Shown piece by piece: positions 8,001 through 22,081 of a DNA stretch of 64,000 nt. Position 1 is the stretch's first letter, and every line of letters starts with the position of its first letter. Made by a program: the position numbers and the translations under genes. Where the stretch lies: positions 512,001-576,000 of the forward strand of contig CAWFQK010000004.1 of assembly GCA_963817955.1 (NCBI GenBank). Reading direction: 5' to 3'. Origin of the DNA: an uncultured Gemmatimonadaceae bacterium (GTDB taxonomy: Bacteria; Gemmatimonadota; Gemmatimonadetes; Gemmatimonadales; Gemmatimonadaceae). Below the pieces are notes generated by a model. The model had not been told where the DNA came from. It made no database searches and saw nothing but the letters and a program-made list of their open reading frames with translations.

Positions 8001-8461
8001 TAGCTGCGGGGATGGACGGTTATCTGTCCAAGCCGTTCCGCCCAGCGGATCTGTTCGCAGCCGTGGAGACGGGCGACGTCGAGGCGCTGCCGACCGCGAC
8101 GCCAGAGTTGGAGATGTCTGAGGCTGCCATCGACCTCGACGCCCTGCAAGCCGACCTCGCGGCGGCACAGGTGGCGGACATTCTTCCGGAACTCTTGGAA
8201 AGCTTCGAGCGAGACGCTCCGTGCCGCTTGGAGGCGCTCGAGCGTGCGGTGGCGGCCGGAGACGCCGCGGAAATCGAGCGCACCGCCCACGCATACAAAT
8301 CGCCGAGCTCGACGATCTACGCGCGGCCCTTAGCCACGCTGCTTGGCCAGATCGAGGCAACCGCCAGCCGGCAGGACTCGACAGGATTGCCGGCGTTACT
8401 CGTGGCGGTGCAGAACGAGTCGAGGCGCGTCAGCTTGTTGCTCAGCGCCCGGAGGATCTAG
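5057..8461 (+). CDS. Membrane-bound hybrid histidine kinase (TM-PAS-PAS-GAF-HisKA-HATPase-REC-Hpt); start uncertain
   Basis: Hydrophobic N-terminus; PAS ends YSDITEQK and FSDITERQ; H-box FLAHMSHEIRTPLNG; GGTGLGL; REC DVVLMDVQMP; Hpt AHAYKS. Confidence 0.92.
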   Translation: MMQPLTIDTYTRQSLVQRLLGEPMFVEATHGVLGALAVAMLWNAAPHTLLLTWVFALDAATVARYYLRRYYATRQTSVVAVPGLLRIAIVVVGLCWGIGAFTLAPIIPNVDLALLMVIMCGVCAAGTASLLADRATYRGFLVAMLAPLALGMLRTQHMHDDMLALAMVVLFGAGMLMLHGNVQEILIDLIRTTFTVQSTAAVAAREREFLESLIQTAPSAVAVTDASERLTRINPAFESMFGYSPEEAIGRRIEELIVPADDREAFRVLREHVVAGGTIDGERVRHAKSGQLLHVRAAASPLAGAGGTLILYSDITEQKIAERHIRESEDRLFRTLDSLPAGIVVVGVDGSALLANARARDLLGPGIASGPSGDDLACTYQACVAGTDRVYPSERNPLLRALHGERVVIDDMEIRRPGGSIIVEVSGSPITDSEGDVVFGVATFSDITERQRLERRNAARNAVVAVLAEATDESSIIAGMLHAVCEELGWDIGSMWHVDAATELLRNAGFWCRPGFDAGESEAFMRTQSYARGVGLAGCVLADPRPLWVEDLSVHEPPFVRAAAATHLRAALGLPVRVAGAIVGVIELFSAEARPEDGAMIEMLAAIASQVGNAVERRRAEVALREARDAAEQATTAKSAFLAHMSHEIRTPLNGILGMAELLLDGSLTADDRRGVELIATSGESLLAIIDAILDFSKIEAEQLTLEVSEFELPVLIESSTDLMATRAANTATEVFIDVDPSTPRFVIGDPTRLRQVLNNLIGNAIKFTPRGNVVVRATRGSSRDDVADIMFSVRDTGIGIQPDQLASIFEPFRQADASTTRKFGGTGLGLSICRRLVMLMGGDLQVHSTPGAGSNFTFTLPLRLPPRVTTPRSPRSVARPRIERAATARRVLLAEDNAVNQEVASRMLRRRGHVVDIVGNGREAVEAVARGVYDVVLMDVQMPELDGLQATRAIRTDAPAGRPRIIAVTANATSAERDRCLAAGMDGYLSKPFRPADLFAAVETGDVEALPTATPELEMSEAAIDLDALQADLAAAQVADILPELLESFERDAPCRLEALERAVAAGDAAEIERTAHAYKSPSSTIYARPLATLLGQIEATASRQDSTGLPALLVAVQNESRRVSLLLSARRI

Positions 8462-8562
8462 CCGCGCTAGCGCTGCTCAAGGACTGGCGCGACATTTTCG
8501 ACGCATACCCGCTGCCGGCCTCGGTGACTATCATACGTTCTGGTGCTCTCTACGGATGGCCG

Positions 8563-8802
8563 TCAGTGCCACCGCGCCATGGATGCCGCCGTGCCGCCTT
8601 GCGCGATCGCGCGGCCAGCTTCCATACGAGGCGAAGGCGAATCTGAAAAGACCGTTCCGGACACGTTCGCGAGAAGGCCGAGCATGATTTCGCCCTGGTG
8701 CGAGAGGCTCTGCGACGCCAATACGAGCGAATGGAGGATCGCGCCGACCGACACGAGTCCGAGCGTGAGCCGCCGCCGAAGCTGCCAGCCCTTCGCCTTC
8801 AT
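8563..8802 (-). CDS. Small membrane protein, possibly frameshifted
   Basis: Basic N-terminus then two hydrophobic stretches; C-terminal frame uncertain. Confidence 0.35.
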   Translation of the reverse strand: MKAKGWQLRRRLTLGLVSVGAILHSLVLASQSLSHQGEIMLGLLANVSGTVFSDSPSPRMEAGRAIAQGGTAASMARWH

Positions 8803-9059
8803 CCCGGCGGTGTCGCGGGCTGCATCTACGCGAACGAAGTACTCCTTGAGACAACATCGGCTTCAATGCCGGGAAGGCCGACTCCGAACTCTCCGGCATT
8901 TCTCGTGGAGCGTGACGTTCGTCTCCAGCCTGCGGCCGGAGCGCCGACACGTGACAGGGATCCGTGTGGCTGGCCATTGATGGCCGGCAGCGCGACCTTG
9001 GTCTATGGATTCGGCTCTGCGTGATACGCGGTGTCGCCTCGCCCTAGTCTCACGATAGC

Positions 9060-9494
9060 ACCGGTTCCTTGTTGGGCTTAGGGTTGAGATCCCATCACGA
9101 CCATGGCGATGCAGCGGTAGGCAGGGTCAGCAGTGGGAACCTGGCGGATACGAGAGCGACGACGTTTCTCGTATTGAGTGTGACCGCCCATTCGGTTCTG
9201 CGCATTTCCCTCGCCGTTGTGAGGTTGCTTAGCATAATCTTCGCACAACTTGGGGTACAAGAAATGCGATAATGACGTGATAGCGTTAATGATCGGCATG
9301 GGCCGCTCGGGCCTCATAGATTCGCAGCCACCTCGATTTGACCGGGGCGGGTATCCACGAACCGAGCACGGATCTCGAACTCGCCAACCGACCCGCGTTA
9401 CTGGAACAGTAATCAATGGCTGCGTAATGGGAAGTCGATGCGCCATCGGCGCTTGCATCCAGGTCAGACCAGGAAGGGCTTGGGCTCCGTTTGA
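9060..9494 (+). pseudogene. Possible degraded membrane-protein gene
   Basis: Hydrophobic fragments in several frames (TTFLVLSVTAHSVLRISLAVVRLLSIIF; DVIALMIGMG); one frame ends in a TGATG overlap with the next start. Confidence 0.25.
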
Positions 9495-10031
9495 TGCCTA
9501 ACCGATCGTGGCTCATCGCGGCAGTCGTTCTTCTCGCCATCGGGCTCGTCCTCGGCATGCGTACCGCGCCCAAGGGCATGCGCCGGTGCGCGCCGTTGTC
9601 GGTCATGAATCAGGGGCGCTCCTGTTCGCACGAATCGCGGCGAACAATTTGTTTGCCGGAACGCTTCTGGTGCTGGGGCTCTATACGGCCGGTGTCAGCG
9701 CCGTGGCTGCCCTGATTGTCAACGGGTTCAAAATCGCGCGCCTGCTTGTCCTGCTCCAAACCAGCGGTGCCACCGCATTCGATATTGTCGCGATGCTCGG
9801 ATTGCACGGCGTGATCGAGTTCCCTGTGCTCATTATCGCAGGCGCGTTCGGCTTGCAAGGCTACCAACGCTTCGTCATAGCATTTGTCAGTCGCGATCGA
9901 GGCGCGAAGTGACGCGCGTGCTCGACTGGCGAACCGCGTGCTTCCTCGGTGCGGCATTGGTGTTGGCTGCAGCGATCGAGACGTGGATTTCACAGCCCGT
10001 AGCAGCACACATTTTGTCGGCGGGACGCTAG
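9494..10031 (+). pseudogene. SpoIIM/DUF95-family membrane protein with two -1 frameshifts
   Basis: Three successive frames give MPNRSWLIAAVVLLAIGLVLG, LFARIAANNL...NGF...LHGVIEFPVLIIAGAFG and LVLAAAIETWIS: the NN, HGxxE and AAxIE motifs of SpoIIM in order. Confidence 0.7.
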
Positions 10032-10055
10032 CAACACAGGAGCACGAGTGAAATA

Positions 10056-10087
10056 GAAAAGACGGACATGGCGTCCGCCCTTTCTTC
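10056..10087. terminator. Imperfect bidirectional terminator between convergent genes
   Basis: GAAAAGA-CGGAC-ATGGC-GTCCG-CCCTTTCTTC. Confidence 0.4.
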
Positions 10088-10265
10088 ATGCTAGTTCGCC
10101 CCTATCACGTCGTTGAAACATCATCACGCCGACGATGAGCAGTACGACTCCTGCGAGGTCTGCCATCAAATGCACCGCAGGCTGGGAGATCGGCCCGAAC
10201 GACGCTATGGCGAACTCAGCCCCCAACGCTATCGAGCCCCACGCGTTAGGGCGGAGGCGTGGCAC
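10086..10265 (-). CDS. Small two-TM membrane protein (immunity-like)
   Basis: GTG 1 nt after the upstream stop; 59 aa with two hydrophobic helices (AWGSIALGAEFAIASF; LAGVVLLIVGVMMF) and a charged tail. Confidence 0.55.
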   Translation of the reverse strand: MPRLRPNAWGSIALGAEFAIASFGPISQPAVHLMADLAGVVLLIVGVMMFQRRDRGELA

Positions 10266-10266
10266 G

Positions 10267-11292
10267 TTAGTCAGCCCACGCACACGCGTCGTCCCACGAC
10301 GGGATCCCACGCATCGGGTCTTCCGCCACCAAATCGAGATAGTCATGACAGCTCTGGTCGCCTGTGGTGGACGGGTACGGAAACTGCTGAGAAATGAATA
10401 CGCCGAGGTCGAAGCCGATTCCGAATGCTCCCATCATGCCACCCAAGGCGCTGAGTGCAAAATCTTCAATCAGACCGTCAGCAGTGGCGCCGATGGCGCC
10501 AAGGCCCACCGTTGCCTTAATGATCCATCCAAAGATGGACGGACTACCATCCTTCGCTGTGTCGACGACCTGTGCCCCAAGGGATTGTGGCAGTATCATG
10601 TCTGCTGCAACGACTTGGATGCGATGCGCTAAATGCGCGGCAACTCAGGCGTGGCTTCCGCCGTTCCCCGCACCAGGCCGAGACGAGCCTGCTCGTGTTT
10701 TACATCGAATGTTGCGACAGCCCGCCGCGTGAGCACACCGTTCGAAACTCGTTCATGGTGAGCCGTGCAGCTCCCATGCGCCGTCCGTGCGCTTCCACTC
10801 GGGAACTGCGGCGTAGACGAGCGCACCATCCATTGAAATTCGAACGGCGACGCAGGACTGTCACCGGTTCCCGCGTCAACCGCAAGGTCGAAGGTATGTC
10901 CGGATGTCGGAAGCGTCCGACCGTGGATTGCATTTCTGCCGTGTGCGCGACCGAAATCCGTCTCGAACACAGGAATCGCCTGCTGCCGCCCCGAAGTCCG
11001 TCGAGTGCGCCAAGCCGAACGTAGCCCGTCCCTCGGACTACGTGACCCAAGAGATGTTGGGGCGCGACGTCGACATGCTGCCAGTGCCCGTTGGAGTCGA
11101 TACCGTCAACTGAGATCGAAACGCCCGCGGACACGTTCGTCCCCTCGATCGGGGACTTGGTCAACGTCGGTTGTAACACATCGAACGCCGAGCGTAGTGC
11201 GACAGGCTCGCCATTCCTGTCTTGGCATGCCGTTACGAGCACGACAGCGCAGCTAATACCGCGACGGACATGATCTATCGTTCTCGATTCAT
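10267..11292 (-). pseudogene. Multiply frameshifted lipoprotein with a Gly-rich hydrophobic C-terminal domain
   Basis: RBS and ATG at 11292; lipobox-like AVVLVTAC; protein-like segments in alternating frames; open C-terminal 110 aa (10267-10599). Confidence 0.5.
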
Positions 11293-11789
11293 TGATCCCT
11301 CAAGAAGTGGTGTCTACGGTCGTAAGCGCGTATCCATCGGCTTCCGACAGTGGCATTGCTCGGAGGGAATATTTTGAGTGCTGTTCGGCATCGAACGGCG
11401 TTGGAACTCATACATTGGACCTTGCAGTTCGATGGCTACACGCCGTGCTCGCGCTTCAAAGTGCGATGGACTCCGAGGCGAGCACGTTCGACCAGCGCCG
11501 ACGCTACCTACGGAGCGTCATGCCAGCGTCATGCGGCGCGTTACCGAAGATACGCCGGCGTAAACGCACTTCCGAGAGAACCGGAGATTCGTGCGGCTAT
11601 CGGTGTGGGGATGCCACGAGTTGGCGATGTTGGGCCTATTATATTGATTATAAGAAAAAATTATAGTAAAGTGAAAGTTCTGGCTCTAGCCGCATTCCGT
11701 AAGAACGGTCCAACAGCGGTCGTCGACTGGGGCTTCATGGATTGTTTGGCTCGTGCCGAGACTCATTGAATACCCGCGGGCGAGGCCCC

Positions 11790-12146
11790 ATGTCAGTGAC
11801 TTGGCACTACAGACGACCGATCAACTTCCGCTCGACCTCGCTCGATGGCGGCGATGTCCAGTTCCCGCGTGCGGTTGCGGGTGAGGACTTCGACCGGTAT
11901 GCACGCGCGGTATGGCATCAAGGACAGCGATGGATCCGACGGCATTGGCCCCGGATCTACGGTCCAGACGTCACCATGCACGACGCGCGCGCCAGCTTGT
12001 GTGCGGTCGCGGCGATTGATGTCGTGCGGCGCTTGTATCCTCAAGAACAGCAGCTGCTGAGCGAACTGGTCTACCGTGCATGGACTGAAGCCGAGCGCGA
12101 TCTACGCGTGGAAACGATAGACGCCCATCTCGCGGCTGCGGGATGA
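11790..12146 (+). CDS. Hypothetical protein
   Basis: 118-aa ORF with GAGG RBS and protein-like composition; converges on the tRNA 3' end. Confidence 0.6.
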   Translation: MSVTWHYRRPINFRSTSLDGGDVQFPRAVAGEDFDRYARAVWHQGQRWIRRHWPRIYGPDVTMHDARASLCAVAAIDVVRRLYPQEQQLLSELVYRAWTEAERDLRVETIDAHLAAAG

Positions 12147-12165
12147 GCGTCTATGGTCTGCGACA

Positions 12166-12252
12166 CGGATGAGGCGAGATTCGAACTCGCGAGCGGCTTG
12201 CGCCGCCACACGCTTTCCAGGCGTGCGCCTTAAACCACTCGGCCACCCATCC
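12166..12252 (-). tRNA. tRNA-Ser(GGA)
   Basis: Acceptor stem GGATGGG/CTCATCC with discriminator G; anticodon arm CACGC-CT-GGA-AA-GCGTG; long variable arm; GTTCGAATC T-loop; CCA not encoded. Confidence 0.96.
12213..12252. repeat. att core, left copy (5' half of tRNA-Ser)
   Basis: CTTTCCAGGCGTGCGCCTTAAACCACTCGGCCACCCATCC, identical to 21863-21902. Confidence 0.95.
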
Positions 12253-12266
12253 AACAGCCATCTAAC

Positions 12267-13517
12267 TTAGCCAGCCACAGCGACTTCTGACACCCTGTCG
12301 GGCGGTAATTCGGAATGCTGGTCGCGGTTCGCGGTCGCGGTTCGTGCTGCTTCCGCCTTTCGTGCCTCCCCGCGTCTAGCAAGCGCCGCCCGCAACGTGT
12401 CCTCGCGGGGTTTCTGGTACACCTCAACAATGGTCTTGTAGGAACTCCACCCACCGAGCGCCATGAGCTGCGCGGCAGGAAGGCCGTCGTTGTCGCTCGC
12501 AAACTTTCGCCGCAACGAATGCCAGCCCCTGCCCTTCACACGCGCGAGGCCGGCGCGTGTCTCCAGCTGCGTCCACCAGCGTTGGAACTGGCGCCGCGAA
12601 ATCGGTTCCTCTGGGTCGAGCGGCGACGGGAATACCCAGCCATCCCCGATTCGGGATTCTTCACGCCTCATTCGCTTGAGCGCATCAACGTGCTCCGGTA
12701 ACAGCGGCGTGCCGTGCTCTCGCTTCATCTTGTCCCACGCTCTACCCCAAACAATCCGGCCGGCGGATAGATCAACTTCGCTCCAACGCAACCGCGCGAC
12801 GGAGATTGAGCGATGGCCGGTCTCGTGTTCCAGATACAAATACAGTTCGACTTGCGGTCCCAGCGCCTTCGCCGCCACGCAGAGCGCATCATACTCGGCG
12901 TCGGTCGTCATCGGCTGACGCGGGCTCGACTCTACCGGAATCGGAAATTTCCGAAACGGATTGCGATCGAGCAGCGGCCGACCGTTGATACGGACCGTCT
13001 CCGCCCAGTTGCACACGGCCATGAGAAACTTTAGATCATAGCCGATCATGCGATCCCGCACGCCACCCTCCGTCTTTCGCCCGCTGGGCCTCAGGCGTCC
13101 GGCGCGTCGCTCGCTGATGAAACGGTCCCAATCCCGCCGGTCCAGATCAACGACGCGAGCGGATGTCCCCCAACACGACTCAAACAGGCCGCGCGCCGTG
13201 CGATCATGCCGAGCTTTCGCCGCCGTTTTTCGCGGCGTAACTTCGCGCAGGTAGTTGTCAAACAGCTCCTTCACGGTCAGCTCATCGCTGCGCGGCGCTT
13301 CCTCTTTGCGGAGTGCTGTCGCCAATTCCTCGGCGGCCAGCTTCCCGCGTTCGCGGTCGGCGTGGTGCAATGACCGACTGCGCCGCTTCCCGTCTTCGTC
13401 CTGATACTCCAACATCAACGTGCCGTCGCGCGGGTGCGGATACAGGCGTACTCGGTTGCAACCTTTCTCGCCTGTGATGAAGCTCCGTGCCCGCGTTGGC
13501 TTCCTCGAACGTGTCAC
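12267..13517 (-). CDS. Tyrosine recombinase/integrase
   Basis: Catalytic R (ETGHR), K (WDKMK), HxxR (WHSLRR), W (LGGWS) and Y (VEVY); ends 14 bp from the att core. Confidence 0.93.
   Translation of the reverse strand: MTRSRKPTRARSFITGEKGCNRVRLYPHPRDGTLMLEYQDEDGKRRSRSLHHADRERGKLAAEELATALRKEEAPRSDELTVKELFDNYLREVTPRKTAAKARHDRTARGLFESCWGTSARVVDLDRRDWDRFISERRAGRLRPSGRKTEGGVRDRMIGYDLKFLMAVCNWAETVRINGRPLLDRNPFRKFPIPVESSPRQPMTTDAEYDALCVAAKALGPQVELYLYLEHETGHRSISVARLRWSEVDLSAGRIVWGRAWDKMKREHGTPLLPEHVDALKRMRREESRIGDGWVFPSPLDPEEPISRRQFQRWWTQLETRAGLARVKGRGWHSLRRKFASDNDGLPAAQLMALGGWSSYKTIVEVYQKPREDTLRAALARRGEARKAEAARTATANRDQHSELPPDRVSEVAVAG
12319..12342. repeat. Candidate integrase arm-type sites, left pair
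   Basis: TGGTCGCGGTT and CGGTCGCGGTT in tandem; the same motif pair occurs at 21735-21757. Confidence 0.65.
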
Positions 13518-13927
13518 CGTGCGCCTCCTACGTGGCGGGTGATGACAGCTCGCGCGATCTCTGCGCGTTCAATGTGCAAGGCCGGCGCCGATGGAGGCAA
13601 GGCGGCGCCCGGCTTCTTCGGCAGATCGCTTCGACGCACGCGCGGCGCATTTCGACGGCCGGCGTTCGGAATCTTGCCGCGCGAAATCTCGCGTCCGAGA
13701 TGGTCAACGCTATAACCGCTCTCGGTCGCCGCCGCTGCGAGTGTCAGCAAGCCCCCTGCATTCCGGCGGAGCGCCTCGTCTAGTTCATTCGCCGCACTCT
13801 CCAGCGCAATGGCCGCGCCCTCCGCCGCCGCCCAGCGGCGGAGGGCGGCGGCTCGATTGCGCCACAAGCCGGCTAGTTCTTGTGTAGAGGGTTCAGCGTA
13901 CTGCGTCTGCTGAGGTTCGCGTTTCAC
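13514..13927 (-). CDS. Excisionase-like helix-turn-helix protein
   Basis: LLTLAAAATESGYSVDHLGREISRGKIP...RVRRSDL (Xis/MerR-like); GTGA overlap with the integrase; GAGGAG RBS. Confidence 0.75.
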   Translation of the reverse strand: MKREPQQTQYAEPSTQELAGLWRNRAAALRRWAAAEGAAIALESAANELDEALRRNAGGLLTLAAAATESGYSVDHLGREISRGKIPNAGRRNAPRVRRSDLPKKPGAALPPSAPALHIERAEIARAVITRHVGGAR

Positions 13928-14033
13928 GATTCGTCATAGCTCTCCTCGTTCCGTTGAATGGTGCGCGTCGGCCACCGTGTCACCGACGCGCGTAAGAATT
14001 GACGTGCCTCGGTGGCACGGACACACTGGAAGC

Positions 14034-14282
14034 CTACAGCTCGTAGAGCCGTAGGTCATTCATGATGTCAAACAGACCATCGCGCACATCGGCTTCCGGC
14101 CCACCGGGGCTCTTCTGGATACGCTCATCGTGCCGCGTCGCACGTTCAATCACCTGTACCTCTTCCTCGGTAAGCGAGATGACCAGTTCGCCGCTGAAGA
14201 AGAGCCCCAGGGAATCGGCGTGTAGTCTGTCTAGTAACCGCATCCGACGTGTCGCCTCTGCGTACTTCCGGCGGGCGTGCAT
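14034..14282 (-). CDS. Hypothetical protein
   Basis: 82-aa ORF co-oriented between the primase and xis-like genes. Confidence 0.5.
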   Translation of the reverse strand: MHARRKYAEATRRMRLLDRLHADSLGLFFSGELVISLTEEEVQVIERATRHDERIQKSPGGPEADVRDGLFDIMNDLRLYEL

Positions 14283-14352
14283 CGAGGCACGGGGTTATGA
14301 TAGGACCGTGGAACCAATTGCCGGAGTGCAGGGGGCGCCGCTGCGATGACCA

Positions 14353-16779
14353 TCATACGAGATCCTCGATGCTCTCGGGGGCTTGTGCCGGTGGCACTTC
14401 CTTCCCGGCGCGATACTTGTCCCGATGCTCCACGACGTAACCGGCCCTCAGCGCAGCTTCGAGCGCGCGGGTTTGACGACTACGGTCCGTCTTCCCATCT
14501 CGGATGAACAGGCCCGGTTGCTGTGCGCGCATTTCGGTGAACAGTTCGCTCTTTGTTACGCCGTGCGTAGGGCTGGCGATTGAACGAATCGCGATACCGG
14601 CCGCGATAGCGCAGCGAGCGCCAATCGTCGCATCGTCCGCCAACACGGGGGCCACACCCTCTTTCAGCACGCCGGGCGCGACGAGATGCCACCGAAATTC
14701 CGTATCTGACTTGCCGCCTTTGTTCTTCTTCACGCGCATCGTAATGTTGTCGTCCTTCTTCAAGACGGTGGCCTCCCAGTCGAACGCTCCTTCAATGACA
14801 CTTGAGCCCCGAGCCCTGCCCGAGTCCGAGACCGCGGAGTGATGCACGACGAGCACGAAGGCGTTTGCCATTCGCGACAGCGACTGGAGCGTTGCCATTA
14901 CGACGCCCATCTCTTGCGCGTTGTTCTCCTCGCCGGTTGTCGCGCCCTTGAGCACATCCACCACCAGAGCGACCGGTTCAGGAGCACCACGCGCGCGAAG
15001 CTGTGCAAGGGTGTCGCGAAAATACGGGATCGCGCCAGCGATCGACGATAAGGCGGGGGCGCCGTCAATCACGAATACATCGGCGTCCTCGACGCCAAAT
15101 TCCTTGAGTTGGCGCGTGATGCGCTCGCGAAACCCGTCAACATCTTCCGTTGCGAAGCACACAACCGAGCCGGCTTTCATGACCGGGGAACCGGCAAAGC
15201 CGCGTGCGAGCGAGACCGCGCAGGCAAAGGCTGATACGATCCAGGACTTGCCGTTGCCCGGAGGACCAATGAGTCCCCCCACCCCGCGCCGAGGGAGCGC
15301 CCCGTCGATCAGCCATTCCCTCTGAACCGTCTTCGCATCGCCGGCCCGCCACAGCGACAGCGGCGCGGCGGTCGCTTCGCTGACAAGCATCTGAACGGGC
15401 GCCGCGAGCAACCACGCTGCTCGTCGGATGAGCCGCGCGTCGTCCTCCTTGAGCCCTTGTAGAATGCGCCCAAGCTGCGTGCTGAGCGCGACATCAAACA
15501 CCGATCGCTCTGATGCGTAGGGGGAGAGGCGAAGGATATGAAGCACCTCCGGGCGAAAGACGGGCGTGAGCGGATCGTGTTGCAGCGCCGCCTTGCTGAG
15601 AAGCTCCCATCTGTCCGCGACGCCCTGGCCGGAGAGGCGGCCAACCTCTGAAACGAACACCCGATCCGCGCTGCCGATGATTGCGGCTAGGCGCTCTCCT
15701 TCGGAGGCGCCCGCCGCCCAGCGCTCAGCTTCGGCATCGCGCGCCGTCTCGGCCGGAGGCGTGGCGCCCTCGACTACGGCGAACTCGTATTTCACGCTGT
15801 TGAAACCAAAGTCGCGAGCGAGATCTACCAGCCACGCCCAGCCGACTTGAAACGGCCCGTGAAGACTGCGCCAATCTGCCTCGACTGTGTCGGGCGGGTT
15901 CACGCCGCCCTCCCAGCGAGCGCACCACTCGTAAAACAGCTCGCGCCCCTCTTCCTCGTACTCGATCCCGGCGGCCGCCTTCACCGCATAGGCAAACGTG
16001 ATGTAGTCGGCGCGACCGGGGAACCGCGCTTCGCTATTCGGAATGCACCGGATACACTCTCTGAGGGCTTCCATGCGGGCCGCGCCTTCCCCTGGAGCGA
16101 GCAGCGCCGCTTGATCGGCGGCCGGCGCTGAGACTTGCCCGTTTCCTTCGCGATGCGTCGTGTAGCCCCGCGCCGCAAAGTCCGCCTCGGCCACATCGAG
16201 AAACTGGCTCGCCTGCTCCCGTGTTATCTCGGTGCCTGGCTGCGCAGTGGGGTCTTTGTCCCACTCATACGTTGCGCCGCTCGGATGTGTCCCGGCGATC
16301 AGGTACTGCTGCTTGTCGCCCAAGATCTCGACGAGATGCTTCTCACCCTCCCGCTCCGCGCATAGGCGCATCCGAGCGAACGGCTCTGTGGTGCGATACT
16401 GGAGCAGCCGTTTTGACGAGTTGGCGCGACCTCGCACCGGAGCGGGACCAAGTTGCGACAACGCCATCTGTTCGATGCGGTCGGCGATCACGGGGTCGTC
16501 GCTGTCGATGTCAACGCCCGGCCGGCGCGCAGCCTTGAGGCCCAGGTTAGCTCCGTCCTTTTCCCACTGCTCGACGTTCTCGCACGTGGCCTCGTGCGAC
16601 AGCCATTTATATCCGCCCCACGTACCGGAGCTGTTGCGCTGCCCCGGCGACTTGCCGCGTGCGTTCAGCGTGATTCTCGACTGCGGGGAGATCTCGCCGG
16701 TTGGCGGAATCACCGACACTAAGTCGGCGCCGTACGTGTCGAAGCTGCGCATGAAAAACGATTGCGTTTCCTCCTGCAT
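14353..16779 (-). CDS. Primase-helicase: Prim-Pol (AEP) + PriCT-2-like + AAA_25/RepA-like helicase
   Basis: ANLGL...GVDIDSDD and GTHPSGATYEW (Prim-Pol); ELFYEWCARW (PriCT-2-like); Walker A GPPGNGKS, Walker B LVVD, VLVVHH...RGSS. Confidence 0.88.
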   Translation of the reverse strand: MQEETQSFFMRSFDTYGADLVSVIPPTGEISPQSRITLNARGKSPGQRNSSGTWGGYKWLSHEATCENVEQWEKDGANLGLKAARRPGVDIDSDDPVIADRIEQMALSQLGPAPVRGRANSSKRLLQYRTTEPFARMRLCAEREGEKHLVEILGDKQQYLIAGTHPSGATYEWDKDPTAQPGTEITREQASQFLDVAEADFAARGYTTHREGNGQVSAPAADQAALLAPGEGAARMEALRECIRCIPNSEARFPGRADYITFAYAVKAAAGIEYEEEGRELFYEWCARWEGGVNPPDTVEADWRSLHGPFQVGWAWLVDLARDFGFNSVKYEFAVVEGATPPAETARDAEAERWAAGASEGERLAAIIGSADRVFVSEVGRLSGQGVADRWELLSKAALQHDPLTPVFRPEVLHILRLSPYASERSVFDVALSTQLGRILQGLKEDDARLIRRAAWLLAAPVQMLVSEATAAPLSLWRAGDAKTVQREWLIDGALPRRGVGGLIGPPGNGKSWIVSAFACAVSLARGFAGSPVMKAGSVVCFATEDVDGFRERITRQLKEFGVEDADVFVIDGAPALSSIAGAIPYFRDTLAQLRARGAPEPVALVVDVLKGATTGEENNAQEMGVVMATLQSLSRMANAFVLVVHHSAVSDSGRARGSSVIEGAFDWEATVLKKDDNITMRVKKNKGGKSDTEFRWHLVAPGVLKEGVAPVLADDATIGARCAIAAGIAIRSIASPTHGVTKSELFTEMRAQQPGLFIRDGKTDRSRQTRALEAALRAGYVVEHRDKYRAGKEVPPAQAPESIEDLV

Positions 16780-16808
16780 TTGAGTATATTTACATCACTA
16801 TCCCGTAT

Positions 16809-16862
16809 AGCTCCCCGGTCTCAGCTCCCGTGTTCGCGCGCGGTCGCTAGGACCGGGGAGCT
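16809..16862. other. Stem-loop upstream of the primase gene
   Basis: 12-bp inverted repeat AGCTCCCCGGTC...GACCGGGGAGCT. Confidence 0.5.
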
Positions 16863-17061
16863 TTGGTTGTGTGAGATCGACAGAGCCGAAATGATGGCCG
16901 AAGGTTCGGCCGTGGTCACTGCGTGGCGTACGCGCCGGTAAAGGCTTGCGGTCGTGGCGTTCTAACGTGTTCGCACGCGTGGCCCCTAGCTGCCCCGTAG
17001 AGCCGCGATCGGCACCGGAGTAGCAAAGGAGTGCGAGATGAGCCCCCGCGTGCGTTGTGGG

Positions 17062-17331
17062 CTACGCCTGGGGGCTCTGACTCGGACGTGCCAAGCCTGC
17101 GGCGGAGGTTCCCGCTGGCTGCTTGGCACGTTCGTTCTCCACTCGTTCGATTTCAGTGCGTTGGGCGTAGGCCCGGACATTCGCTTCGTCAAGGAGCCAG
17201 CGGTCGGTGATTTGACGCGCGGGGCCGAGGGCGCCGCGCAGAGCGAGGCGACGCACGGTGTACCAAGGCAAGCCAAGCAAGGTGGCAGCCTGTGGTAGTG
17301 TGATTTCGGTTTTCACTGCGGGGGGTCTCAA
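17062..17331 (-). CDS. Small helix-turn-helix (Xis/AlpA-like) protein
   Basis: ITLPQAATLLGLPWYTVRRLALRGAL...RWLLDEANV; AGGA RBS before TTG. Confidence 0.75.
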   Translation of the reverse strand: MRPPAVKTEITLPQAATLLGLPWYTVRRLALRGALGPARQITDRWLLDEANVRAYAQRTEIERVENERAKQPAGTSAAGLARPSQSPQA

Positions 17332-17428
17332 GTCCTTCCCTGATGGCGCCTCGCTATTGGGCGCCGAGCTGGCGATGCGGGTCTCATGTACCGACCGTGC
17401 AGAAATCGCCGCGATTTATCGACCCCTA

Positions 17429-17457
17429 AATATACACCGTTCGGAGTAAAAGGTCAA
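17429..17457 (-). promoter_or_regulatory. Sigma70 promoter for the leftward replication/recombination genes
   Basis: TTGACC, 17 bp, TATATT on the minus strand. Confidence 0.7.
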
Positions 17458-17521
17458 CAAAGAACTATCGGCGCTGCTCTCTCCTGCATCTGCATTCAGG
17501 ACGTGGCATTCGGGTCGCCAC

Positions 17522-17706
17522 TGTCGCGTCGTCGCAACCCTACTACGTAAGGGTTTGCAACACGGCGACAAAGACAGTTTGTCGCAAGACTGTCGCAAGG
17601 TTCTGTCGCTTGCAACAAACCATACAGGACAACGACTTAGCCCCTCCATCGAACAGCGCTGCGACAACCTTTGCGACATGTCGCAAGCTCTGTCGCAACG
17701 TGTCGC
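17522..17706. repeat. Iteron cluster, putative replication origin
   Basis: About 13 copies of TGTCGC(AA) or variants in both orientations, including the perfect palindrome TTGCGACATGTCGCAA (17671-17686). Confidence 0.75.
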
Positions 17707-17812
17707 GGGCCGCGCGCGCCGAACACCCCGGAAACGACGGCGCCGCGCAGAGCGATTCCCTGAGCGCGGCGCGCTATGCGCCCGCGCGCGCGAGGCGCGC
17801 CGCCCGATCCGA

Positions 17813-18526
17813 CTACTGAACCCAGCCGCCGGCATTGAGGCGCGCCAGAAGCCGCCCAACCTGCGCGGCGCTCCACCTGCCCCCTCGCGGCGCGCCGATG
17901 CACCGATCATTCAACGCGCGAGCGATGGCACGAAACGAAGTGACCCCCGAGGCGCGTAGCTCGGCGATGGTCAGCCCGAAGGCATCCGCATGTTCAGCCG
18001 CGTTGGCCGCTCGGACCTTGGCGCTCTCCGCCGCGCCCCGTCTCGCCGCCGCTCGGCTGATTCGTTCAGGGTGCCCGCCAAGCGGCGCCTTCCCGGCTTT
18101 GCGCCGCTTCTCTCTTACGACGGCGAGAGCCGCCTTTGTGCGCTCAGCAACCAAACGCCGTTCATGCTGCGCGACAGCCGCGAAGATGTGAACGGTAAGT
18201 TCGTTGGCCTCTGGCATATCAGCCACAACGAACTTCACACCTTGCGCTTGAAGGTTGATAAGGAAGCGCAAGTCTCGCGACAACCGGTCGAGCTTTGAGA
18301 CGACGAGGCGAGCGCCGTACATCCGGCAAGCAGCCAACGCCTTCCTCAGCTCCGGCCGCGTGTTGTTGCCGCCGCTCTCCACCTCCGTATACTCCGCGCG
18401 AAGCTCCCAGCGCCCGCCGTTGAGATAGTCGAGTACCGCGTTTCGCTGCGCCTCCAGGCCGTTGCCTGACCGGCCTTGTCGAGCCGTGGAAACGCGAAAA
18501 TACGCCACAAAGGCACCGTTTGGCAT
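17813..18526 (-). CDS. Serine recombinase (resolvase/invertase family)
   Basis: VAYFRVSTARQ (catalytic Ser), EVESG, RPEL, KLDRLSRD, ERTKAAL; C-terminal HTH. Confidence 0.93.
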   Translation of the reverse strand: MPNGAFVAYFRVSTARQGRSGNGLEAQRNAVLDYLNGGRWELRAEYTEVESGGNNTRPELRKALAACRMYGARLVVSKLDRLSRDLRFLINLQAQGVKFVVADMPEANELTVHIFAAVAQHERRLVAERTKAALAVVREKRRKAGKAPLGGHPERISRAAARRGAAESAKVRAANAAEHADAFGLTIAELRASGVTSFRAIARALNDRCIGAPRGGRWSAAQVGRLLARLNAGGWVQ

Positions 18527-18726
18527 CGAAGGTAGCCGTCGTTGTGAGGGTGACACATAAGGCCCGTTTTTCGTCGGGCCTATTGTTACACGCGTTCGGG
18601 GATTACACAAGAGACATCTTCGGGCGCAGGTCCGCCGCAGGCGGACAACGATGCGTCGGCATTTCGATTTCTTGGATGGCGACAGGGGCAATGCCGAACG
18701 CGTCTACAGCCGGGGATGCTCTCGCT

Positions 18727-18906
18727 CACCGCGCGGGCCAACTCCGGCCGCGCATCGTTCCCGCCGCTCTCGACCTCTGTGAACGAAGCTCAGAGATCCC
18801 AGCGCCCACCATTCAGATAGTCGAGAACAGCCGCCTGCTGGGCTTCGAGGCCCAGCCCTGAGCGGCCCTGGCGCGCGGTCGATACCCGGAAGTACGCCAC
18901 AAATGC
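18727..18906 (-). pseudogene. Truncated second copy of the serine recombinase N-terminus
   Basis: AFVAYFRVSTARQGRSGLGLEAQQAAVLDYLNGGRWDL*ASFTEVESGGNDARPELARAV aligns without gaps to the intact gene; in-frame TGA at 18790-18792. Confidence 0.85.
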
Positions 18907-18916
18907 GCAAGTTGCC

Positions 18917-18965
18917 AGGACAAGGCAGGATAGGAACAAGGCAAGGCTAGGCTAAGGCAGGGAGA
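18917..18965. repeat. Degenerate pentamer tandem repeat (AAGGC/TAGGC-like)
   Basis: AGGACAAGGCAGGATAGGAACAAGGCAAGGCTAGGCTAAGGCAGG. Confidence 0.55.
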
Positions 18966-19121
18966 GCCTCCCCCCCCTTTGCCCAGGAACGCCCGGCCCG
19001 CTGCCGTAGCCGGGAGGTAAGTGACCGGCCCGGGGCTCTGGCCAGAGACTCCCCTCCGGACATTGAGAAGAGCCCGTCGAAATTTTTTCGCCTATTGAAT
19101 CGAAAAAGCTTCGGTCGTCCG

Positions 19122-19349
19122 TCAGCGGCGCGCCCGGCGCCGCGCACTCGGTACGCGCTCGATTAGTTCGCCCGGCTCCACGCAGAATAGCTCGCAGAGC
19201 TTTTCCAGGGTTATGGTGTCGATGCGTTGCACCGGATCACCCTTCGCTAACCGATACGCAGCGGGAACGGTTAGCCCCGACTCGCTCGCGAGTCGATACG
19301 CTGTCCACCCGCGCTTGTGCAACAGCTCTGGAATGCGCCACCGAATCAT
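19122..19349 (-). CDS. Cro/CI-type (XRE) transcriptional regulator
   Basis: WRIPELLHKRGWTAYRLASESGLT...RIDTITLEKLCELFCVEPGELI; GGAG RBS. Confidence 0.88.
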   Translation of the reverse strand: MIRWRIPELLHKRGWTAYRLASESGLTVPAAYRLAKGDPVQRIDTITLEKLCELFCVEPGELIERVPSARRRARR

Positions 19350-19396
19350 TTGCGTTTCTCCCTGTGTCCGCACCCGCAACTTGACCTATTCGTCAA

Positions 19397-19450
19397 GTAA
19401 CGCTAGCGGTACTAACCGCTGTTGACAAGTCATTACGCTAGCGTTACTGT
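19397..19450. promoter_or_regulatory. Divergent promoters with two palindromic operators
   Basis: Plus: TTGACA (19422), 17 bp, TACTGT. Minus: TTGTCA (19428), 17 bp, TAGCGT. Operators GTAACGCTAGCGGTAC (19397-19412) and ATTACGCTAGCGTTAC (19432-19447). Confidence 0.75.
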
Positions 19451-19499
19451 CGGTGCAGCCCGCGTGGGCTCGGATCTACTCACAATCGGAGCGTTGACT

Positions 19500-19661
19500 A
19501 TGGTCAAGACCAAGAGCGGCACGACCCCTCGTACTATTCGTGTCCGCACCCGCACCGTCGATGTTCTGTTTGTCTATAGCAAGGCGCCTGGTGGGCTCAC
19601 ACCCGATGAGGCGACGCGCCTCGGGCTCGCACTCATCGCCATTTCCGACGAAGCCGACTGA
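19500..19661 (+). CDS. Small hypothetical protein divergent from the repressor
   Basis: 53 aa; GGAG RBS; lies between a promoter and a terminator. Confidence 0.6.
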   Translation: MVKTKSGTTPRTIRVRTRTVDVLFVYSKAPGGLTPDEATRLGLALIAISDEAD

Positions 19662-19685
19662 GTACGGCCCTGCCGGATGCGCCAC

Positions 19686-19730
19686 GAATTGCCCGTTTGC
19701 TCTCCAGCAAGCGGGCAATTCTCGTTTCGT
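19686..19730 (+). terminator. Intrinsic terminator
   Basis: 16-bp stem GAATTGCCCGTTTGCT-CTCC-AGCAAGCGGGCAATTC then TCGTTTCGT. Confidence 0.65.
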
Positions 19731-19775
19731 GGTTCGGCGACGACGCAAACTCTCATGGCGAAATCGCGCGCAATG

Positions 19776-19809
19776 TGCTATATTTAGGGACACCAAATTA
19801 GTATTTGGT
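19776..19809 (+). promoter_or_regulatory. Extended -10 promoter and adjacent palindrome upstream of the terS operon
   Basis: TGcTATATT (19776-19784); ACCAAAT-TAGT-ATTTGGT (19792-19809). Confidence 0.5.
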
Positions 19810-19915
19810 TTTGCATTCCTGCTCCGGCGAAACAACCCGCCGTTGAGCCTAAGGCCCCGGCGCAGAAGGTCCACCCGCCGCCGCGCGCCCCACCGGAAGT
19901 CCTCGGAAACGCTCT

Positions 19916-20116
19916 ATGAAAACAGACCCGCTCGCCGGCTACCTCACGCTGCGCGACATCACGCCACTCGTCGGCTCGTACTTCACCGCGTACAGTCTCG
20001 CCGCCGCCGGCCAATTCGGACCGCCGGTCATAGTCGGACGAACGCAGTTCTTTTCCCAGCGCACCGCTGAACGCGCAATCGAGAAGCGGACCGCCGCGAA
20101 AGTGGCCGGCCGCTGA
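19916..20116 (+). CDS. Small AlpA/Xis-like DNA-binding protein
   Basis: YLTLRDI...AYSLAAAGQFGPPVIVGRTQFF resembles the AlpA-type pattern. Confidence 0.6.
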   Translation: MKTDPLAGYLTLRDITPLVGSYFTAYSLAAAGQFGPPVIVGRTQFFSQRTAERAIEKRTAAKVAGR

Positions 20117-20328
20117 TGAGTCTCCTCATCGACAAAATCATGCTACGCGAGTACCTCCGCATCGGCACGAGACAAGCGCTCGGACCGGAGGGCACGCCGC
20201 TCCAGTACCTCGCCGTGCTCGCGCATGAATGGCAGTGCTCCATCCCCGCTGCGGTGGAACGCCTCACGGCGCAACTTCATCGTGATATGTCAACTCTCCC
20301 GGGGGAGCAATCACCGGAGGTAGAGTGA
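20116..20328 (+). CDS. Hypothetical protein
   Basis: 70 aa; overlaps both neighbours by TGATG. Confidence 0.6.
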   Translation: MSLLIDKIMLREYLRIGTRQALGPEGTPLQYLAVLAHEWQCSIPAAVERLTAQLHRDMSTLPGEQSPEVE

Positions 20329-20852
20329 TGGCCGGCAAACCAAAAGAAGCTCGTCTACTCGCGGCGCTTGAGAAACGCGCGGTACGGGAACTCGGCGACG
20401 GCGCGACGCCGCTCGACTTCGTTTGCGACTACATCAGCGGCGGCAAGACGTTTATTGATCTCGCCGGGGAGCTAGCAACGGAACTGGGCGAGTCGGTCTC
20501 ACGTCAGTTCATCTCTGGCACGGCGAACGCGCTCGCCCCCGATGCGAAGGCCCGCATTACCGTTGCACGACAAGAAGGTGCTATGGCGCTCGCAGAGGAT
20601 ACGCTGTCAATCGCCGACGATGCCGAGCCCACAGCGGGCGGAGCGGCAAAGGCCCGCGTACAAATCGGTTCAAGGCAATGGCTGGCCGAGCGATTCAACT
20701 CCGCGCAGTTCGGCGGAATGAAGGGACAGGTCAACGTTTCATTCGGCGCCCTGATGCTTGAGGCGCTGCGCCAGCCGCCACCGATAAGGCCAGTCGTTGA
20801 GAACGTTCCTCTTCTTTTGACGGGTACGACCGAAGATGCTGGCCCGGCATAA
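20328..20852 (+). CDS. Terminase small subunit-like protein (Sf6-type)
   Basis: N-terminal HTH (ISGGKTFIDLA) and ARQEGAMALAEDTLSIADD...KARVQIGSRQWLAERFNSAQFG, matching the Sf6-like TerS pattern as I recall it; GGAGG RBS. Confidence 0.75.
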   Translation: MAGKPKEARLLAALEKRAVRELGDGATPLDFVCDYISGGKTFIDLAGELATELGESVSRQFISGTANALAPDAKARITVARQEGAMALAEDTLSIADDAEPTAGGAAKARVQIGSRQWLAERFNSAQFGGMKGQVNVSFGALMLEALRQPPPIRPVVENVPLLLTGTTEDAGPA

Positions 20853-20891
20853 GCCACGGCGAGGCGTAGCAGGCCCCAGCACCGCGTAGGA

Positions 20892-20944
20892 GCGAACGAA
20901 GGCCGCTGCTGAGGGAAAGACCCTTGGCAGCGGCCTTCGTTCGC
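20892..20944. terminator. Long hairpin, bidirectional terminator between convergent genes
   Basis: 24-bp stem with two G-T pairs: GCGAACGAAGGCCGCTGCTGAGGG-AAAGA-CCCTTGGCAGCGGCCTTCGTTCGC. Confidence 0.65.
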
Positions 20945-21036
20945 CGCGTGCGCTACCCGGCCCACGGCTTTCACTACATCCCCGTTTCCTGACGGTCTGC
21001 GTCTGGCCGCTCCGGGAGTGACCCGGACGCGCCGCT

Positions 21037-21423
21037 CTACTGCTTGCAGCTCGGATCACGGAAGCGAACAACCGTCCCCGAGAGCACAGCGCGGTGGTCC
21101 ACGTCAACACCTCCGTTCACGCCAGGGCTCACGCCCTCAATCGTCTGCTCCGACGCAACCCGGATGACCGCATCGCCGCCGAGTTCGCGCGCGCTACTCC
21201 GCATAGCGTCTGCGAGATCATCTGGTTTCGTCCAAAACGTGCGGGGGCGAACACTCACGAGACCGACTTCATCGAACGCGCACCGGGGAAGCTGCGCATT
21301 GTAAAGCGTTACGGGAGCGTCAGCCGGCCGCGCATCTGCCGCTGTGGGTGCAAGCCGCGTCACGCGCACAGCCGGGGCGCACGCCACGGCCAACAGTAAC
21401 AATCCGAACACGCGTAGACGCAT
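21037..21423 (-). CDS. Cargo lipoprotein, YbjQ-like fold suggested
   Basis: MRLRVFGLLLLAVAC lipobox; FDEVGLV...ARELGGDAVI motif; GGAG RBS. Confidence 0.75.
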   Translation of the reverse strand: MRLRVFGLLLLAVACAPAVRVTRLAPTAADARPADAPVTLYNAQLPRCAFDEVGLVSVRPRTFWTKPDDLADAMRSSARELGGDAVIRVASEQTIEGVSPGVNGGVDVDHRAVLSGTVVRFRDPSCKQ

Positions 21424-21681
21424 TGTCGCTCCAGTCAATGTCAGAGTTGTTGGATCACTCATCCCGAACTCAGACGAACGTACGAAGACCAACGCAACCG
21501 GCAGTGGACTGCGACACGAGAAGTTGCGGTATCTTGGCGTCTTTCCGCGACGCGGCCTTAGTGGCGCCGCGTCTTGCCACGCCAGGGGCCTTCCCGTCGC
21601 GGCCTTCACACCCCCGCGCAGGATGATTACGACGCGGCACAATGGGAAGTAGCTGGGGCTGCGCAGACCGGTCGGAACGAC

Positions 21682-21724
21682 AAAGCCCGCTTGCTCAGGT
21701 GAGGTTCACCTTGGCAAGCGGGCT
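21682..21724 (-). terminator. Terminator-like hairpin just inside the right end of the element
   Basis: AGCCCGCTTGC-tc-AGGTGA-ggt-TCACCT-tg-GCAAGCGGGCT; short T run on the minus strand. Confidence 0.6.
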
Positions 21725-21734
21725 GTGTAGGTCT

Positions 21735-21757
21735 TGGTCGCAGTTGTGGTCGCGGTT
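21735..21757. repeat. Candidate integrase arm-type sites, right pair
   Basis: TGGTCGCAGTT and TGGTCGCGGTT in tandem, ~105 bp from the att core. Confidence 0.65.
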
Positions 21758-21862
21758 CGTTCAGGAAAGGCCCGGCATCGAGCAACAAAGGTCCGTCAGA
21801 TCGCGCGAGCTGTCAGAGTGAAAACCGACAACTTGCCGGACTTTGCTACCCCAGTCCATTCA

Positions 21863-21902
21863 CTTTCCAGGCGTGCGCCTTAAACCACTCGGCCACCCAT
21901 CC
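21863..21902 (-). repeat. att core, right copy: orphan 5' half of tRNA-Ser(GGA)
   Basis: 40-bp identity to 12213-12252; similarity stops just past the anticodon loop. Confidence 0.95.
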
Positions 21903-21991
21903 TTGAAGGGTCGTTCCTACCTTCCCACAAACTGCAACCGGCGCGATCGGCTCTGACATGCCGCCGCGCCGGTTGGCCATACACATCGAGG

Positions 21992-22081
21992 CGGACAGGG
22001 AGAGATTCGAACTCTCGATACCGGGTTCACCGGTATGCCGGTTTTCGAGACCGGTGCCTTCAACCGCTCGGCCACCTGTCC
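21992..22081 (-). tRNA. tRNA-Ser(CGA)
   Basis: GGACAGG/CCTGTCC acceptor stem with discriminator G; CCGGT-CT-CGA-AA-ACCGG; long variable arm; GTTCGAATC. Confidence 0.97.

Follow-up and report, generated by a model that had tools for sequence, protein, structure and literature searches.

Most known phage satellites come from Proteobacteria and Firmicutes, and some from Actinobacteria, according to the survey in PMC10085698. The phage-inducible chromosomal islands (PICI) figure there as elements with a median length of 9.5 kb and a conserved gene order, whose core comprises an integrase, a regulator, a primase-replicase, capsid morphogenesis and a terminase small subunit (TerS); some bona fide PICI do without the capsid-morphogenesis gene, and the P4-like satellites are assigned seven core components (PMC10085698). 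The marine VEIMEs, as presented in PMC9618062, carry a tyrosine integrase and/or a serine recombinase, with both in six subgroups, together with primase/helicases, AlpA, excisionases and TerS homologs closest to those of co-occurring phages. They are reported to lack capsid remodelling and to be packaged as concatemers in full-size capsids, and the string 'Gemmatimonad' has no occurrence in the main text of that paper (PMC9618062). For the PICMI of Vibrionaceae, the account in PMC10803314 likewise gives no capsid remodelling, concatemer packaging and no terS homolog found; the detection model used there relies on Fis, DUF3987/DUF5906 primases and integration at fis. Here we describe a 9,650-bp island of an uncultured Gemmatimonadaceae bacterium, situated in a window of 64,000 nucleotides (assembly GCA_963817955.1, contig CAWFQK010000004.1, positions 512,001 to 576,000; unless a locus is named, coordinates are those of this window). 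On balance, we consider it probable that the island is an integrated, self-replicating and helper-dependent phage satellite, which redirects packaging through its own TerS and works like a PICI or a VEIME.

The island was inserted by site-specific recombination into a tRNA-Ser(GGA) gene. It is bounded by a 40-bp direct repeat, perfect at both sites as the earlier note on this DNA had claimed, with a start-to-start spacing of 9,650 bp; the match lengthens to 47 nt at 94% identity. A whole-genome search of the window's own assembly (4.53 Mb in 9 contigs, 94% complete) recovered two copies of the repeat only. At attL, the intact tRNA gene joins its native 3' half (12165-12212) to the repeat copy on the island side. 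The empty site is seen in G111, which belongs to the same family: tRNA-Ser(CGA) is followed after 95 nt by tRNA-Ser(GGA), and then by TadA and ClpB as in the window.

The packaging gene of the island is the last member of a three-gene plus-strand operon composed of an Xis-like winged helix-turn-helix (wHTH) gene, a 70-aa open reading frame (ORF) and TerS. Its product, 20325-20852, is a genuine Sf6-type TerS as judged by Pfam score, PHROG match and predicted fold. The earlier note had proposed examining 20328-20852 for TerS homology, and both the profile and the fold match to Sf6 gp1 bear it out. In a six-frame search of the genome, PF20901 gave a sole match (37.1 bits), and the Pfam match of the protein spans profile positions 41-101 of 106, i.e., the oligomerisation helices, beyond the helix-turn-helix (HTH). 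Among 5.8 billion proteins, 14 relatives with 43-100% identity were retrieved, all 14 carrying PF20901. The AlphaFold model built on the alignment of those relatives (mean pLDDT 80.8) has the Sf6-type fold, with an N-terminal helical DNA-binding part and a long helical hairpin. In a Foldseek search of the PDB, chains of Sf6 gp1 took all of ranks 1-6 (prob 1.00, E 8e-4 to 5e-3, TM 0.63-0.66 on the target), and the next match had an E-value of 1.1. An Sf6-type TerS usually lies beside the terminase large subunit (TerL); the island TerS has no TerL in the island or in the genome, and a lone TerS without TerL is a satellite hallmark. Alignment of island and phage TerS revealed conservation of the central helices and of a C-terminal A-L-R motif, with R82, I96, D98, R117, W119, A121, E122, R123, A147 and L148 invariant in both, while the N-terminal part carries insertions in the island clade and in the protein of G131, a genome of the same genus. 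Such a pattern would be expected if DNA recognition had diverged while docking to TerL was kept.

To place this TerS among its relatives, viral and metagenome contigs were scanned, and the best 80 of 207 and the best 80 of 107 confirmed candidates, respectively, were taken. The resulting 160 TerS-bearing loci hold 117 distinct TerS sequences and were scored by tblastn with the island TerS, four TerLs and three portals, drawn from these loci and from G131. Among distant relatives (at most 71 bits, 24-47% identity) with at least 2.5 kb downstream, TerL was present in 54 of 56, at a median gap of 420 bp, the two exceptions being L048 and L137; among close relatives (at least 90 bits, same downstream length) it was present in none of three (L082, L002 and L086). 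Sampled genes downstream of phage TerS encode Terminase_6N and SU10_portal proteins, and upstream of it lies an AAA_25 protein of roughly 690 aa, the helicase part of which is 27% identical to that of the island. Homologs of the 66-aa wHTH protein from the island operon were found among the 160 loci only in L082, L002/L085, L083 and L084; this gene travels with the island-type TerS.

The closest relative with genomic context is L082, on a metagenome contig, whose TerS is 55% identical. Its gene order is gltX, tRNA-Ser(GCT), a 419-aa recombinase, an 823-aa AAA_25 protein, an Xis-like gene, an XRE gene, a resolvase, a small wHTH gene and TerS, after which come unassigned genes, a ParB_N/ART-like protein, a lipoprotein homolog and an OLD/AriAB/GajA-like ATPase. 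The 89-aa Xis/AlpA/MerR-like protein, the resolvase and the putative lipoprotein of the window island have homologs there with 45%, 41% and 46% identity, respectively. With regard to head-tail modules in close relatives, a point raised in the earlier note, L082 proved to be a syntenic island in which the 10 kb downstream of TerS contain neither TerL nor portal. Its 419-aa recombinase has no Pfam match and reads as tyrosine-type only from C-terminal motifs recognised by eye; a second att repeat was not found within the 20.5 kb examined of this 28.9-kb contig, and the other end may lie elsewhere on it. L082 also carries cargo absent from the window island: a 603-aa ABC ATPase resembling OLD, AriAB, GajA and PtuA (15357-17168), which are defence-associated families, and a 489-aa protein (12287-13756) with weak ParB_N and ART-PolyVal matches.

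A maximum-likelihood tree of 49 TerS rows was then built. Hits with an aligned length below 140 residues, ORFs shorter than 120 aa or longer than 260 aa and duplicates were left out, as were phage rows beyond a random 28. The 19 island-type TerS fall into one group (support 96/88), and the G131 prophage TerS, paired with that of L086 (99/85, flagged as a long-branch join), is their nearest TerL-linked relative; a split with support of 100/99 separates the island-type and G131/L086 sequences together from the 28 phage TerS. A TerS profile run against 401 genomes sampled from the phylum matched 7, the own genome counted. When genome contigs were searched with the TerS alignment, none of 13 pattern matches was confirmed, and six short island-type contigs showed no terminal overlap in a test for circularity. 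At L172 (G336:C3), host genes surround an Sf6-type TerS ORF (9915-10601) and, beside it, a Mutator-family transposase (10670-11944); TerL is missing from the vicinity, and the ORF has the look of a remnant that was left stranded.

These relationships also bear on a different history, in which the island would be what decay has left of a temperate TerS-TerL-SU10-portal phage: with its structural genes gone, it would by now be unable to move or able only to excise. The island TerS (27-37% identity) and AAA_25 helicase (27%) are indeed homologous to neighbouring genes of such phages, a resolvase gene fragment inside the island speaks of a past rearrangement, and the stranded TerS fragment beside a transposase in G336 indicates that remnants occur. 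L082, however, at 55% TerS identity keeps the same gene subset, also without TerL or portal, and two independent decays to one and the same gene set are unlikely. Moreover, the att repeats match without a difference over 40 bp, every recognised gene has an open frame, the island-type TerS form a supported group of their own with a partner gene unseen in phage loci, and the helicase and TerS genes, co-linear neighbours in phages, are divergent in the island. We therefore regard decay as quite improbable.

The satellite reading calls for a helper with a compatible TerL, and a candidate helper phage type is present in the same genus. In G131, a TerS 37% identical to that of the island is followed by a Terminase_6N TerL and then by an SU10-type portal; the region is prophage-like, lying beside host biosynthetic genes and running to the contig end. 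Complex prediction for the island TerS with the G131 TerL gave a score of 0.48 (0.48, 0.50 and 0.42 in the individual runs), compared with 0.00 for the best of three controls, with contact agreement of at least 57% and partner pLDDT of at least 73. Of 157 solved complexes, 116 reach the mark applied to such predictions, as do 2 of 215 mismatched pairs; only 18 of the 157 solved complexes and both passing mismatches reach it with a score of 0.60 or less. The predicted complex thus lends weak support to binding between the two proteins, and it shows likeness rather than proof because the TerS and TerL families are known to bind. The size of such phages can be read from one 67,152-bp metagenome contig (L097 and L098), in which the sequence recurs every 35,266 bp (100% and 99.95% identity in two stretches); this is the unit genome length of one TerS-TerL-SU10-portal phage. 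A 35.3-kb genome corresponds to about 3.7 island units of 9,650 bp, a ratio compatible with concatemer packaging, though the phage measured is not the helper.

In all, 23 ORFs were scanned with Pfam and PHROGs (Table 1). The integrase, the serine resolvase, the XRE gene and the Sf6-type TerS-like gene named in the earlier note were all matched, and its statement that capsid, portal, TerL, tail, relaxase and type IV secretion system (T4SS) genes are absent agrees with the scan, in which these families and lysis families had no match in the 23 ORFs. Two of its claims hold in part. The proposed Prim-Pol/helicase fusion has PriCT_2 and AAA_25 matches but no Pfam match to a Prim-Pol domain; residues 9-336 are 42-43% identical to L174 and L175 proteins that match PF09250, and by this similarity the N-terminal part appears related to Prim-Pol proteins. 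Of three claimed Xis/AlpA-like HTH genes, the 89-aa protein is supported by a near-cut-off HTH_17 score and excisionase PHROGs and the 66-aa protein by its fold, whereas the 137-aa protein has only a weak HTH_17 match. Foldseek top matches of the 66-aa model are lambda Xis, GlnR, BldC and Pukovnik Xis, all weak (E at least 0.099). Homologs of the 137-aa protein (40-44% identity) adjoin related integrases in L172, L174, L175 and L185; it may serve as an excision cofactor or as a regulator.

A diverged copy of the N-terminal part of the resolvase, with 79% amino-acid identity over 61 residues, lies just upstream of the resolvase gene; it is a fragment that dates from an earlier duplication or recombination event. 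At the right end, a signal-peptide/lipobox-like stretch, read by eye in the translation of an ORF with no family match, makes a lipoprotein plausible. No ORF without a family match that was taken as a gene exceeds about 130 aa. PADLOC gave no match on the island ORFs, and analysis of G+C at third codon positions left the small ORFs unsettled, the signal being too weak at 63% GC.

Table 1. Features of the island and its boundaries, in window coordinates, with the tRNA gene of a second island (last row) in the coordinates of its own locus
Feature	Coordinates	Strand	Evidence and remarks
tRNA-Ser(GGA)	12165-12253	minus	ARAGORN; 5' part 12213-12252 is the island-side repeat copy
attL core	12213-12252		40-bp perfect repeat; from tRNA 5' end to first base past anticodon loop
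Tyrosine integrase, 416 aa	12267-13517	minus	PF00589 57.3 bits; phrog_1 134 bits, E 2e-38
137-aa protein	13514-13927	minus	Stop overlaps integrase start by 4 nt; HTH_17 17.9 bits, below cut-off
82-aa ORF	14034-14282	minus	No family match
Primase-helicase, 808 aa	14353-16779	minus	AAA_25 88.5 bits; PriCT_2 23.2 bits (cut-off 22); phrog_906, phrog_1156
Xis/AlpA/MerR-like HTH protein, 89 aa	17062-17331	minus	HTH_17 26.2 bits (cut-off 27); phrog_66 and phrog_7506, excisionase/recombination directionality factor
Iteron-like cluster	17530-17698		TGTCGCAA in both orientations, beside AT-richer stretch
Small serine recombinase (resolvase/invertase type)	17813-18691	minus	C-terminal HTH; PF00239 93.3 bits; phrog_125
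Diverged duplicate of resolvase N-terminal part (gene fragment)	18739-18917	minus	179-nt repeat, 73% identity to 18347-18525
XRE/Cro-C1-type regulator, 85 aa	19122-19379	minus	HTH_26 46.3 bits; phrog_3 repressor
Putative divergent control region, XRE gene versus rightward genes	19380-19500		Repeated TTGAC boxes and inverted TAACGCTAGCG motif, read directly
Small rightward ORF	19422-19661	plus	53 aa from ATG at 19501; followed by terminator-like hairpin 19695-19716
Promoter-like -10 element, TG-n-TATATT type	19777-19788	plus	Upstream of HTH-TerS operon
Xis/MerR-like winged-helix protein, 66 aa	19916-20116	plus	AF2 model pLDDT 88.3
70-aa ORF	20116-20328	plus	Stop/start overlaps with both neighbours; sub-threshold wHTH 18.9 bits (cut-off 23)
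Sf6-type TerS, 175 aa	20325-20852	plus	PF20901 36.4 bits (cut-off 27); phrog_1482 E 5e-10
Hairpin, 24-nt arms, 92% complementary, terminator-like	20892-20944		After TerS
Putative lipoprotein, about 128 aa	21037-21423	minus	From Met at ORF residue 74; listed ORF reaches 21642
Hairpin, 28-nt arms, 82% complementary	21675-21733		Between attR and lipoprotein gene
attR core	21863-21902		Native tRNA-Ser(GGA) 5' part, displaced; distance downstream of tRNA-Ser(CGA), 87 nt
tRNA-Ser(CGA)	21990-22081	minus	ARAGORN
tRNA-Pro(TGG) of L175 (G238)	6068-6141		Repeat copies 6099-6141 and 12053-12095

Between the 89-aa protein and the resolvase lies a probable replication origin. The octamer TGTCGCAA occurs in this cluster as five exact copies and four with one mismatch, nine in all, in keeping with the iterons claimed earlier. 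The 64-kb window holds seven exact copies, of which five are in the cluster; at one mismatch or fewer, the window-wide count of 60, nine of them in the cluster, is not above the 67 expected by chance, and the case for iterons therefore rests on their clustering. The stretch between the XRE gene and the rightward genes may have a control function, given the boxes and inverted motif seen in it. Elements similar to the -10-like sequence upstream of the TerS operon were also noticed, by eye and without statistics, upstream in L002, L082, L083 and L084. A comparison of the island and G131 prophage upstream regions for a late-promoter motif common to both yielded no convincing alignment.

The same replication genes suggest another explanation, namely an integrated plasmid-like or otherwise mobilisable island independent of phages, in which the primase-helicase, iterons and resolvase would maintain and resolve a circle, the TerS-like protein and the wHTH protein would be DNA-binding regulators or partition-like factors, and transfer, if any, would take another route. 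It is typical of plasmid modules that iterons lie beside a resolvase and a Rep-type helicase, and the absence of a helper phage from the own genome fits such a life. Related islands of the same phylum, L174 and L175, have an integrase, an HTH gene and a PrimPol-helicase and no TerS, which means that the backbone exists without a packaging gene. We nevertheless think this explanation unlikely, though less so than decay: the full TerS architecture is kept, with the Pfam match over its oligomerisation part and a fold match to Sf6 gp1 only, the island clade as a whole retains residues that it shares with TerL-linked phage TerS, and a relaxase, an oriT protein and a T4SS gene were not found by Pfam or PHROGs.

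Taking the island as a helper-dependent satellite, we hypothesize the following cycle. A helper phage of the TerS-TerL-SU10-portal type would relieve the XRE-controlled switch, upon which the integrase and its cofactor would excise the island and restore the native tRNA, and the primase-helicase would replicate the circle from the iterons. The island TerS, having kept a phage-like oligomerisation core and C-terminal part with a diverged N-terminal DNA-binding part, would recognise a pac site on the island and recruit the helper TerL; from this recognition and recruitment, headful packing of island concatemers into helper capsids would follow.

Several observations weigh against this proposal. 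In the 23 ORFs, neither a capsid-morphogenesis gene nor a Ppi-like or other interference gene could be recognised, and no prophage with a compatible TerL, which the earlier note had suggested seeking, was found in the own genome (94% complete): it has no PF03237 match, and tblastn with the four TerLs and three portals gave a best E-value of 0.08; G131 of the same genus does have such a prophage-like region. Resolvase, iterons and a Rep-like helicase are plasmid logic as well, and a resolvase would counteract the concatemers needed for headful packaging. The promoter of the TerS operon is of an ordinary sigma-70-like kind and by itself gives no hint of helper control. Island-type TerS is rare, found only in G000 among the 401 phylum genomes, the other six matches being phage-type or fragments. 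Finally, L086 counts as close by score, yet its TerS groups with that of the G131 prophage in the tree.

A bolder proposal, possible although doubtful, is that the island is the founding member of a Gemmatimonadota satellite family parasitising temperate phages with SU10-type portals. TerS and the island-specific Xis-like wHTH protein would together capture the helper TerL, the 9.65-kb unit would be packed as concatemers of about four units in full-size capsids, and the integrase would belong to a lineage with a mirror-image tRNA mode that swaps the 5' half. If this were true, the only tRNA-Ser(GGA) would, for as long as the island is integrated, be transcribed from the integrase operon, and the right-end cargo gene would lie in the path of a host tRNA promoter.

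The integration geometry itself is uncommon. Islands in tRNA genes mostly regenerate the 3' part of the target gene; classical ones sit downstream of the gene, whereas the island described here regenerates the 5' half of tRNA-Ser(GGA), from the 5' end to the anticodon loop, and lies upstream. Among tRNA-integrating tyrosine-recombinase islands, an anticodon-loop sublocation was reportedly distinguished by Williams in 2002. Three sublocations are restated in a Klebsiella preprint, in the set of which islands upstream of the tRNA gene are the exception (10.1101/2020.11.02.365908). As in islands of the anticodon-loop sublocation, the anticodon loop is where the identity block stops, and island DNA regenerates the tRNA; unlike in those islands, it is the 5' half that is regenerated. 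Because the island supplies this half and lies upstream, tRNA-Ser(GGA) loses its native promoter, and while the island is integrated the gene would have to be transcribed from within it. The gene is the sole GGA isoacceptor gene among the 51 tRNAs of the assembly (whole-genome ARAGORN), and the integrase stop codon lies 14 bp upstream of its first base on the same strand. A scan for consensus promoters and terminators gave counts not above those in shuffled sequences (promoters 2 vs 1.4; terminators 6 vs 9.2).

The same mode was seen independently in G238, from another genus of the same order, where a 5.95-kb island lies between the copies of a 43-bp perfect repeat over the 5' part of tRNA-Pro(TGG). 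That island has a related integrase (32% identical), an HTH gene and a Prim-Pol/PriCT_2/AAA_25 protein, and no TerS. In both islands the integrase is directly upstream of, and co-oriented with, the tRNA gene. Ordinary geometry was found in G131, with a 35%-identical integrase on the 3' side of the same tRNA, and in G127, where a related integrase abuts a tRNA-like 3' fragment; at the end of the L174 island, neither tmRNA nor tRNA was called by ARAGORN or Rfam. The 5'-half replacement offers a clean natural case of an uncommon geometry and poses the question of how a regenerated tRNA is transcribed.

Further observations were made around these tRNA genes. In G131 (L185, G131:C11, 1927-3959), two tRNA-Ser genes lie 1.85 kb apart, compared with about 90 nt in G111, and in the spacer lie an ORF for a truncated TonB-receptor plug and a DUF1801 ORF; the related integrase, on the 3' side of the same tRNA-Ser(GGA), is accompanied by an HTH gene. 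About 35 bp upstream of that tRNA resemble the integrase-proximal end of the window island and may be the scar of a related island. In the window, the putative lipoprotein gene lies downstream of tRNA-Ser(CGA) and the displaced tRNA fragment (21863-22081) and shares their strand, so transcription from the host tRNA promoter could enter it unless stopped by the 28-nt-arm hairpin. The 3.6 kb (8500-12160) that separate the tRNA, on its 3' side, from a hybrid histidine kinase gene (4898-8461) have a G+C content of 0.56-0.60, compared with about 0.63; nearly all ORFs there lack a family match, one is SpoIIM-like and none is an integrase, and the segment may be old foreign DNA.

The host, earlier taken as probable Gemmatimonadota, is placed in Gemmatimonadaceae by the similarity of the ClpB encoded beside the island, which matches a Gemmatimonadaceae metagenome-assembled genome at 80%, Gemmatimonas at 71% and Gemmatimonadales at 70%, the other 77 of the 80 matches listed being at 63% or less. 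A full-text literature search returned nothing for 'Gemmatimonad' with 'phage satellite' or 'phage-inducible chromosomal island', in agreement with the view that no satellite family has been described from this phylum, though supplementary tables might list Gemmatimonadota elements. With its well-marked ends, a syntenic relative and, in the same genus, a candidate helper lineage, the island provides a testable entry to the satellite biology of a poorly studied soil and freshwater phylum.

Among the known satellites, the P4-like elements have Psu, Delta and Sid genes for capsid size and transactivation, and no such family was among the Pfam/PHROG matches, so membership was rejected. The island resembles PICMI in being small and in its integrase, AlpA-type regulation and primase, and the 4-nt overlap of the 137-aa protein gene with the integrase gene recalls that of iolg, as described in PMC10803314. 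Membership in PICMI was likewise rejected: Fis and DUF3987/DUF5906 are unmatched in Pfam, a TerS is present and the target is a tRNA gene.

The likeness to PICI is closer, with four of the five core components and a length of 9.65 kb compared with the median of 9.5 kb given in PMC10085698. The integrase (PF00589; phrog_1), the primase-replicase (PriCT_2 and AAA_25; phrog_906 and phrog_1156) and TerS (PF20901, with the fold match to Sf6 gp1) are present; for the regulation module, an alpA, merR or stl homolog in PICI, the island has HTH_17 and HTH_26 matches (scores in Table 1), which are general Pfam profiles and not PICI-specific. As in PICI and SaPI, TerS stands alone without other virion genes, and the proposed mechanism is shared, the island TerS redirecting the helper TerL. 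Unlike in the co-linear PICI, the replication genes run on the minus strand toward the integrase and the TerS operon lies on the plus strand, divergent from the XRE gene; the island also differs in its additional serine resolvase, in a TerS of the Sf6/PF20901 type, kin to those of phages with SU10 portals, and in its Gemmatimonadota host. The PICI/SaPI gene logic claimed in the earlier note accordingly stands for the integrase, the primase-replicase, TerS and the lack of virion genes, but not for gene order or the capsid gene; 'PICI-like', as used here, would denote a resemblance of gene logic by description and does not imply family membership. The layout, which that note called non-canonical, does differ from the PICI order, but it is less unprecedented than supposed, since the VEIMEs combine the same gene types (PMC9618062). 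The closeness of VEIME TerS to those of co-occurring phages also has a counterpart here, in the same-genus G131 prophage TerS as the nearest TerL-linked relative of the island-type TerS. VEIMEs are defined in that source by their presence in virions and have marine hosts, whereas the island is known here from its genes alone and compared by description; its gene repertoire matches theirs as presented in PMC9618062, and they provide its nearest functional description.

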